Sequence record: MN850637.1
Length of the DNA stretch: 64,000 nucleotides
Direction: 5' to 3' (one strand)
Source: Escherichia phage warpig
Positions 34,500 through 35,057 of this stretch are shown here, one piece after another. How positions within the stretch are numbered: position 1 is the first letter of the stretch; each line of letters starts with the position of its first letter. The position numbers and the translations under genes are program-made. The notes beneath the pieces are model-generated. The model made no database searches. It worked only from the letters and a program-made list of their open reading frames with translations, and was not told the DNA's origin.

Positions 34500-35057
34500 A
34501 TGAGATATTTGAAGTATGCTTCATGGATTTTCCTAGCTTTACTAGAGCCATTTGCAGCAACCCTAGCAGTCATCTTAGCACCTTTCGTAGTTCCATTCTA
34601 CAGTGAGAAGAAAGGACACCTACCTTTTGGATTCAGATGGATGGAGACCTATGACAACCCAATTGATGGTGATGAAGGTCACGTTAAAAGATGGGCTAAG
34701 ATTAGAAAGATTGGTAAGCTGGGTGTCTACATGCAGAGAGTTGGATGGCTCTGGAGAAACAAAGCTTATAACTTCTCTTACCATGTATTAGGAAGAGATG
34801 TAAAAGATGTTACTAAGTGGAAAGGCAATATCAACGTAAGTTCTGACCCTGAAGATAATCAGACTGGTTATCTCCTAATGTGGAATAGCAATGCTTGGGG
34901 ATTATTCGCTTTTATCCCATCAATTAAAGTCTTTGGTAAACAGTTTTACTGGAGAATTTATATTGGATGGAAACTAAAAAGCGTTGTCCCAGAAGAAAGA
35001 GCATTCTCAAGGGAAAGAGTTATGTTGGCATTCTTTATTCATCCACTGAGAAAGTAA
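34500..35057 (+). CDS. membrane protein encoded inside the tRNA cluster (hypothetical)
   Basis: 185 aa; ATG preceded by AAGAGG; N-terminal TM IFLALLEPFAATLAVILAPFVVPF; Trp-rich. Confidence 0.5.
   Translation: MRYLKYASWIFLALLEPFAATLAVILAPFVVPFYSEKKGHLPFGFRWMETYDNPIDGDEGHVKRWAKIRKIGKLGVYMQRVGWLWRNKAYNFSYHVLGRDVKDVTKWKGNINVSSDPEDNQTGYLLMWNSNAWGLFAFIPSIKVFGKQFYWRIYIGWKLKSVVPEERAFSRERVMLAFFIHPLRK

Follow-up and report, generated by a model that had tools for sequence, protein, structure and literature searches.

A conserved DUF7338 membrane protein encoded within the tRNA array of a Felix O1-like phage is a candidate component of the host-lysis module

Escherichia phage warpig (sequence record MN850637.1) carries a protein-coding gene embedded in a cluster of tRNA genes, which we studied in a 64,000-nucleotide (nt) segment of this Felixounavirus genome (hereafter, the window). 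The open reading frame (ORF) lies on the plus strand at 34500-35057, with its ATG at 34500 and its TAA at 35055-35057, and the ORF listing and the Pfam and PHROG searches identify it as a coding sequence (CDS) of 185 amino acids (aa) belonging to DUF7338 and PHROG 2143. A Shine-Dalgarno sequence, AAGAGG (34486-34491, plus strand), can be read 8 nt upstream of the start codon. ARAGORN places a tRNA-Leu(caa) at 34403-34480 and a tRNA-Gln(ttg) at 35066-35141, both on the plus strand, leaving 19 nt between the end of the first tRNA and the start codon and 8 nt between the stop codon and the second tRNA. The initial annotation of this DNA had described a 185-aa ORF with an AAGAGG ribosome-binding site wedged between tRNAs, and both the coordinates and the ARAGORN calls agree with that description.

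A hydrophobic transmembrane (TM) helix spans codons 9-33 (WIFLALLEPFAATLAVILAPFVVPF; 34524-34598, plus strand) according to the hydropathy scan, the AlphaFold2 (AF2) model, and an alignment of the family (A1). This 25-residue stretch has a mean Kyte-Doolittle value of 2.11. Three motifs follow on the same strand: TYDNPIDGD at codons 50-58 (34647-34673), WLWRN at codons 83-87 (34746-34760), and GWKLK at codons 156-160 (34965-34979), the last of which closes a beta-strand in the model. They were delimited using A1, a second alignment (A2, comprising 80 sequences with a mean column identity of 22%), and a motif scan of 184 representatives, to which the AF2 model was added for GWKLK. The protein contains 10 Trp (5.4%), 16 Lys, and 12 Arg, and its isoelectric point is 9.9. 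The N-terminal hydrophobic helix and the Trp/Lys-rich composition reported earlier are thus both borne out.

The initial annotation recognized no family for this protein, which is in fact catalogued both as Pfam PF24027 (DUF7338) and as PHROG 2143, although these are labels that assign no function. The Pfam match (E = 2e-61; 207.2 bits against a cutoff of 27) aligns residues 1-184 with positions 1-176 of the 180-position profile, and the PHROG match (E = 1e-80) extends over positions 1-183 of 186. All the features of DUF7338 members are present, namely the motifs at residues 50-58, 83-87, and 156-160 and the single helix at residues 9-33, and the protein is a full member of both families, alike in length, helix, and motifs. 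Since neither family has an assigned function, membership explains nothing about the mechanism. DUF7338 was the only Pfam family matched by the 185-aa protein, NCBIfam and PADLOC gave no matches to it, and a literature search for DUF7338 returned no papers. A paper on the UE-M6 holin concerns an unrelated phage.

Searches with tblastn revealed the family in 564 phage records. Escherichia phages skuden and tootiki encode a protein 100% identical to the ORF product, about 200 further Felix O1-like records encode one that is 95 to 99% identical, and homologs in unrelated phage groups share 30 to 60% identity with the product. The T4-like carriers (34 to 60% identity) belong to Slopekvirus, Karamvirus, Dhakavirus, Gelderlandvirus, and Cinqassovirus, and the family is also carried by jumbo phages of Klebsiella, Vibrio, and Serratia and by one Pseudomonas Otagovirus. 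Orthologs include ORF48 of Felix O1 (Felix01p097), gene 0153 of Bas63, agp134 of SUSP1, and gp87 of Mushroom. At an identity of at least 90%, the ORF protein was found in about 214 records and the large terminase in about 254; since some of the terminase records are partial contigs, the gene is nearly core to the genus. When 1.84 billion cluster representatives (clusters at 50% identity) were searched with a profile, 891 members were found at E ≤ 1e-3, nearly all of them single-domain proteins of 160 to 200 aa. Among bacterial genomes, the scan found six DUF7338 loci, including one that is clearly a phage genome.

A few records stand apart. GU169904 ("Staphylococcus phage SA1") and MG065664 ("Campylobacter phage A132") carry Felix O1-like genes with 97 to 100% amino acid identity, and a 178-kb contig labeled "Flagellimonas marina" (L010; NZ_JBHSCL010000010), as long as a T4-like (Slopekvirus) genome, encodes a DUF7338 homolog at 59% identity. 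These three are probably mixed assemblies or contamination, and their labels probably do not give the true hosts. One metagenomic member of 288 aa (P0079) is extended at its C terminus by 105 aa, which include the motif G.G...C.KHD.CY and a second hydrophobic helix. The motif is reminiscent of phospholipase A2 active sites, a reading that found no support in Pfam or PDB and no homolog among the neighboring genes.

Conservation within the family is concentrated in three motifs, [QE]TxDNxxDGDxG[HW], WLWRNxxYxF, and GWKL, which are nearly invariant among the 184 representatives. Residues G57, W83, W85, R86, N87, and G156 are invariant in A2, where D58 is kept in at least 90% of the sequences, and T50, D52, and G57 are invariant in A1. 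Within the TM helix, A1 shows an invariant P28 and a semiconserved acidic residue, E16. Judged by this conservation, the ORF is a real, conserved gene. The alternative of a nonfunctional frame that arose by chance or is decaying between the tRNAs, favored only by the unusual position, is refuted by the conservation data: the Pfam and PHROG matches are full length, and the family is conserved over 564 records and 891 clusters. The good ribosome-binding site, the confident AF2 fold, and the fitness phenotype of an ortholog (both described below) go against it as well, and its probability is negligible.

The AF2 model, built from an alignment of 31 sequences, is confident (predicted local distance difference test [pLDDT] score, 93.9; predicted template modeling [pTM] score, 0.84). 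It consists of a long helix at residues 2-33 (pLDDT of 90 to 98), short helices between residues 43 and 96, and a five-stranded antiparallel sheet at residues 106-184. Foldseek found nothing significant among all PDB chains (best E value, 0.26), a profile search of PDB sequences gave no match, and a search of BFVD returned only uncharacterized members of the family. As modeled, the DUF7338 fold is without counterpart among solved structures. The flanks of the helix, compared in 155 members, have nearly equal counts of Lys plus Arg and net charges of +1.06 on the N-terminal side versus +0.09 on the C-terminal side, which weakly favors an N-in/C-out orientation. The Trp-rich basic domain of about 150 aa would then probably lie on the periplasmic side. 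The 185-aa protein has neither the lipobox nor the coiled coil of spanins and matched no muralytic family or fold in Pfam, in the PDB profile search, or with Foldseek, as a signal-arrest-release (SAR) endolysin might.

The genomic neighborhoods of distant homologs point to lysis. In three of the seven independent metagenomic contexts for which Pfam annotation had been precomputed, DUF7338 is placed in a lysis cassette. The gene order in the first (L016) is tail fibre, a 193-aa gene, DUF7338, a 96-aa gene, GH108 endolysin, two small genes, and Rz. In the second (L024), which is lambdoid, it is class II holin, lysozyme, i-spanin, LysC, DUF7338, small genes, and terminase, and in the third (L026) it is a tail-fibre-like gene, a 149-aa gene, DUF7338, a 114-aa gene, and an M15 peptidase (Peptidase_M15_4). 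We also scanned IMG/VR with an alignment of distant members and obtained 465 contigs encoding a relative, from which 80 loci were taken and 69 were usable, corresponding to 25 groups at 60% identity. Genes were called crudely at these loci, and the ten neighbors of each DUF7338 gene were clustered. A recognizable lysis gene was found within five genes in 41 of the 69 loci and in at least 10 of the 25 groups (binomial P = 8e-5 for a null frequency of 0.1 and 0.017 for a generous one of 0.2), nearly always on the same strand and downstream of DUF7338. The neighboring families, whose representatives were confirmed with Pfam, were Phage_holin_4_1, GH19, GH108, Phage_lysozyme (some of them N-terminally anchored), and spanin-like proteins, and the lysis neighbors also included a 137-aa family without assignment. 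The type of endolysin varies among close relatives of DUF7338, which itself stays at the upstream edge of the cassette. At two loci (L079 and L099), DUF7338 is flanked by holin-like and spanin-like genes, and the reading frames overlap. Directly downstream, several groups, though not the majority, encode a protein of about 95 to 130 aa with a TM helix and a coiled coil.

We therefore favor, with moderate confidence, the view that the DUF7338 protein is an inner-membrane protein of the host-lysis module, acting either as a holin or as a partner or regulator of one. Another explanation is that of a membrane-anchored enzyme or binder of a component of the Gram-negative envelope, which would be coexpressed with the lysis genes and would not time lysis. 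It would be consistent with the near-invariance of TxDNxxDGD, WLWRN, and GWKL among the 184 representatives, at a column identity in A2 of only 22%, and with a Trp-rich basic domain adjoining the membrane helix. The named hosts are, moreover, all Gram-negative, except in two records whose host labels are probably wrong. The family is also present beside complete sets of holin, endolysin, and spanin genes, which suggests that it adds something beyond these three functions. Its target might be a lipid-linked intermediate, a phospholipid, lipopolysaccharide, or peptidoglycan or its tethers. We regard such an envelope enzyme, whichever of these targets it had, as unlikely.

The placement of the gene in Aeromonas phage Aeh1, a T4-like phage, is in line with a membrane protein of the lysis module. 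The late tail-fibre operon of Aeh1 consists of genes 34 and 35, a 36/37-like gene, a 37-like gene, the DUF7338 gene (ORF319w), the lysozyme gene e, and ORF321w, after which asiA follows on the opposite strand. The gaps flanking e are of 1 to 2 nt on each side. In T4, by comparison, genes 38 and t fill the slot before the endolysin that DUF7338 occupies in Aeh1. A careful T4-based annotation of Aeh1 contains no t gene, and a comparative study states that a holin is "not encoded in cluster CC2 or Aeh1" (PMC6669705). Our tblastn search with the T proteins of VR5 and T4 likewise found no T in the window, in Mushroom, or in Aeh1, where the best E value was 2.9. The 101-aa product of ORF321w, in which a coiled coil accompanies an N-terminal TM helix, aligns over its full length with that of a 123-aa ORF of the window (27% identity; E = 2e-6 in a single comparison). 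Since ORF319w, e, and ORF321w stand side by side, the Aeh1 cassette unites three genes whose homologs lie far apart in Felix O1-like genomes.

In the window, the recognizable lysis genes are dispersed. A soluble endolysin of the T4 lysozyme type, of 154 aa and without an N-terminal hydrophobic segment, is encoded at 26699-27163 on the minus strand and is named lysin or endolysin in skuden, Bas63, and Mushroom. The i-spanin gene (12084-12431, plus strand; PHROG 1152, "Rz-like spanin," E = 9e-42) overlaps an o-spanin gene with the lipobox LLITMSGC (12325-12594, plus strand; an ORF call), and both are annotated in Bas63 and Mushroom. Neither PHROG nor Pfam recognized a holin among the membrane ORFs of the window, and tblastn revealed no T homolog. 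Two plus-strand genes that follow the tail-fibre gene (57331-59682) could nevertheless be holins or holin partners, and hence rivals or partners of DUF7338: a 64-aa ORF with a hydrophobic N terminus (59762-59956; SUSP1 ortholog, agp027) and the 123-aa ORF mentioned above (59957-60328; SUSP1 ortholog, agp028), which has an N-terminal TM helix and a coiled coil. With these two candidates beside DUF7338, the true holin may be sought among three genes.

Fitness data are available for an ortholog. A genome-wide CRISPRi-ART screen has been carried out on SUSP1, a Suspvirus of the Ounavirinae (PMC11879866). The gene AVU07_agp134 of this phage (558 nt; PHROG 2143) lies between tRNA-Arg and tRNA-Gln and was mapped by the authors to Felix01p097 (PMC11879866). 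Upon translational knock-down, it had a fitness value of 1.245 (KS P = 0.087; three guides) and was classified as Semi-Fit (PMC11879866). In that study, the T4 holin gene t was likewise Semi-Fit; of the T5 genes, the holin was Fit, and the endolysin and the exclusion lipoprotein were Not Fit (PMC11879866). The screen shows, through a weak signal, that agp134 is expressed and contributes to fitness on a naive laboratory host, which fits a role in lysis better than one in exclusion or antidefense. The initial annotation had proposed that its reading would fall if there were neither expression during infection nor a phenotype; for the SUSP1 ortholog, the Semi-Fit result contradicts such a lack. 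As for the neighbors of the tail-fibre gene, agp028 carries the label "putative holin" and was Not Fit. The PhageMaP paper gives no fitness table by gene, nor does it refer to gene 153 of Bas63.

The label "holin" predates this work. A few GenBank records apply it to homologs of the ORF, and it originated with the Texas A&M annotators of Salmonella phage Mushroom, who assigned CPT_Mushroom87 to the class III holins by topology. The existing database label thus rests on topology alone, not on experiment. No holin-lysin cassette was recognized in the original description of Felix O1, which named other candidates (PMC3185647), and ORF48 is absent from that article's list of virion proteins (PMC3185647), an absence that speaks for a role in lysis. 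More recently, Felix O1 and SUSP1 were said "to date [to] lack an identifiable holin," and lysis in Ounavirus was called "a mystery" (PMC11879866). What is new here is the evidence from context, synteny, and fitness, together with the evidence against a holin.

The tRNA array that encloses the CDS comprises 21 genes (31707-36416, plus strand; ARAGORN). Two sigma70-like sites (TTGACA, a spacer of 17 or 18 nt, and TAATAT or TAAAGT; 31560-31588 and 31651-31680, plus strand) precede the first tRNA, and a terminator-like GC-rich hairpin with a T-run (36579-36596, plus strand) follows the last one. The number of promoter-like sites was not above that in the shuffled-sequence control. On these features, the array and its two CDSs probably form one transcription unit, in which the DUF7338 mRNA would be cotranscribed with the tRNAs and freed from the precursor by tRNA processing. 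The order tRNA-Arg, DUF7338 gene, tRNA-Gln is found in Felix O1 and SUSP1, and the order tRNA-Gln, DUF7338 gene, tRNA-Arg is found in Pseudomonas phage M5.1, whose protein is 34% identical. The gene begins 236 nt past a tRNA-Arg in VR5 and about 1 kb past tRNAs in STML-198 and PMBT1, and it lies away from tRNAs in Aeh1. In Salmonella phage STML-198 (NC_027344; L001, 3206-4079), ARAGORN called three tRNAs (Met, Gln, and Arg) that are not annotated in RefSeq, 0.9 to 1.8 kb upstream of the DUF7338 homolog. We considered whether tRNAs and gene travel as a mobile module and rejected the idea: the flanking tRNAs of Felix O1, VR5, and M5.1 are only 53 to 72% alike, the same as unrelated tRNAs, which makes a recently shared module unlikely. 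The array is most simply read as a strongly transcribed, plastic region.

Other genes of the array and its border deserve mention. The second CDS (35508-36242, plus strand; 244 aa), between tRNA-Phe and tRNA-Ser, belongs to DUF7217 and PHROG 2114; its product has weak tape-measure-like matches, and its SUSP1 ortholog, agp133, was Not Fit. The Felix O1 ortholog of this product, ORF49 (Gp49), is listed among the virion proteins in the original description (PMC3185647). An ORF resembling HNH-type endonucleases (32848-33246, plus strand; 132 aa; Cys-rich, with ...CSNCH...) occupies a place where skuden, the closest annotated phage, has tRNAs, and the array of Felix O1 contains three HNH genes. Homing endonucleases are concentrated in the array. 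Just before it, at about 30100-31540 on the plus strand, lies a gene for a vWFA/Ro60-like protein (skuden_69, "vWFA protein"; Felix01p079, "RNA-binding protein"). According to the PhageMaP preprint, the Bas63 ortholog of this protein, gp130, counters the Ppl defense system, and its authors speculate that Y-RNA-like partners are present among the "tRNAs."

Such plasticity would suit an accessory membrane protein for superinfection exclusion, injection blocking, defense, or antidefense, the roles put forward in the initial annotation. In Felix O1-like phages and in Otagovirus the gene resides in tRNA arrays that also contain homing endonucleases, and in T4-like phages it resides in the tRNA/internal-protein region. 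In smaller phages it sits at the junction of tail-fibre and lysis genes or after the spanins, and morons such as lambda bor occur at such sites. A membrane protein that co-occurs with complete sets of lysis genes could likewise be an accessory one. On the other side, the Semi-Fit score of the ortholog was obtained on a naive laboratory strain of E. coli, where neither a competing phage nor an added defense system was present, and neither PADLOC nor any other family matched. The same motifs are kept across phages with different receptors and hosts, which argues against a receptor-specific exclusion factor, and in Aeh1 DUF7338 replaces t beside e. We consider an accessory role of this kind quite improbable. 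Of the initial annotation, the membrane protein therefore stands, supported by the conserved single N-terminal helix, whereas the proposed roles in exclusion, injection blocking, defense, and antidefense are left without support, given the lack of a family match and the lysis-gene neighbors.

Returning to a role in the host-lysis module, the protein would be a bitopic inner-membrane protein in which an N-terminal TM helix is followed by a compact, Trp-rich basic domain acting at the cytoplasmic membrane. As a holin, it would give the soluble endolysin (26699-27163) access to the cell wall, with a class III topology like that of T4 T and no relationship to T. As a partner or regulator, it would set the timing of lysis. 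Taken separately, the holin proper is a tentative possibility, and the partner or regulator is a somewhat doubtful one. The orientation in the membrane, the expression from the array transcript, and the hole-forming or regulatory activity are what we infer here.

Several observations weigh against a lysis function of this kind. First, the polar motifs that remain nearly invariant over 891 clusters resemble a catalytic or ligand-binding site and are not typical of a holin. Second, a canonical class II holin (Phage_holin_4_1) is found in the same cassettes as DUF7338, and DUF7338 and a T holin are found together in VR5 and in the Slopekvirus genomes OR637326 and PP889464; this co-occurrence with canonical holins, T included, means that DUF7338 is not the sole holin across the family. 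Many of the cassettes also directly follow tail-fibre genes, a junction that gathers accessory genes as well. In the window itself, the endolysin gene is about 7 kb from the ORF on the other strand, and the distance to the spanin genes is about 22 kb. Early, not late, expression would be suggested by the sigma70-like sites preceding the array, although they are no commoner than in shuffled sequence. Finally, the fitness signal of agp134 is weak (P = 0.087 with three guides) and comes from another genus of the subfamily, where agp027, the ortholog of the 64-aa ORF, was clearly Fit (2.27; P = 0.0007).

Comparison with known systems delimits the proposal. The T4 holin T (class III; Phage_holin_T, PHROG 860) is comparable to the predicted architecture of DUF7338 in its length of about 190 to 220 aa and in its single N-terminal TM helix and large, structured C-terminal domain, and its class in CRISPRi-ART, Semi-Fit, is similar. 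Homology between the two was considered and rejected, as hhalign of A1 against VR5 T gave a probability of 0.4% and Pfam returned only DUF7338. They also differ in that no PDB chain, solved T included, matches the fold and the putative N-terminal cytoplasmic tail of DUF7338 has only about 8 residues; both occur together in VR5 and Slopekvirus, and the DUF7338 gene of the window is not beside lysis genes. The antiholins or regulators T4 RI, P2 LysA, and P1 LydB are membrane anchored, co-occur with a true holin, and are not known to be needed for hole formation. DUF7338 is like them in being membrane anchored and encoded with lysis genes, but has no homology to them. T4 RI has 97 aa and a SAR anchor and binds a single specific holin; the presence of DUF7338 beside several unrelated families of holins argues against a holin-specific binder. 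Small envelope proteins for exclusion, such as T4 Imm and Sp, T5 Llp, and the lambdoid Cor, are in some cases encoded beside tail-fibre or receptor-binding genes. They differ from DUF7338, which has no homology to them and no PADLOC match, and they are dispensable on naive hosts (T5 llp was Not Fit), whereas agp134 was Semi-Fit.

A broader hypothesis, which we hold to be doubtful, is that DUF7338 is the missing holin of the Ounavirinae and of T4-like phages without T, such as Aeh1, and that it founds a large superfamily of holins or lysis effectors, hitherto overlooked, in which the Trp-rich domain has an activity not known from holins. Through its acidic loop and WLWRN motif, this domain might, for instance, bind a conserved lipid of the envelope or a component of the wall, or cleave it, at the surface of the membrane.

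Felix O1 is a classic phage for diagnostics and biocontrol, and its endolysin and spanins are known while its holin is missing on paper. DUF7338 and the two membrane genes that follow the tail fibre provide a short list of directly testable holin candidates for it. Since the 891 clusters of the family extend over T4-like, Felix O1-like, jumbo, and temperate phages, assigning its function would annotate thousands of genes. If it were a plain holin of the class III type, the result would be useful and unsurprising, holins already comprising many unrelated families. If the motifs were catalytic, a new step would be added to the three-step model of lysis in Gram-negative bacteria.

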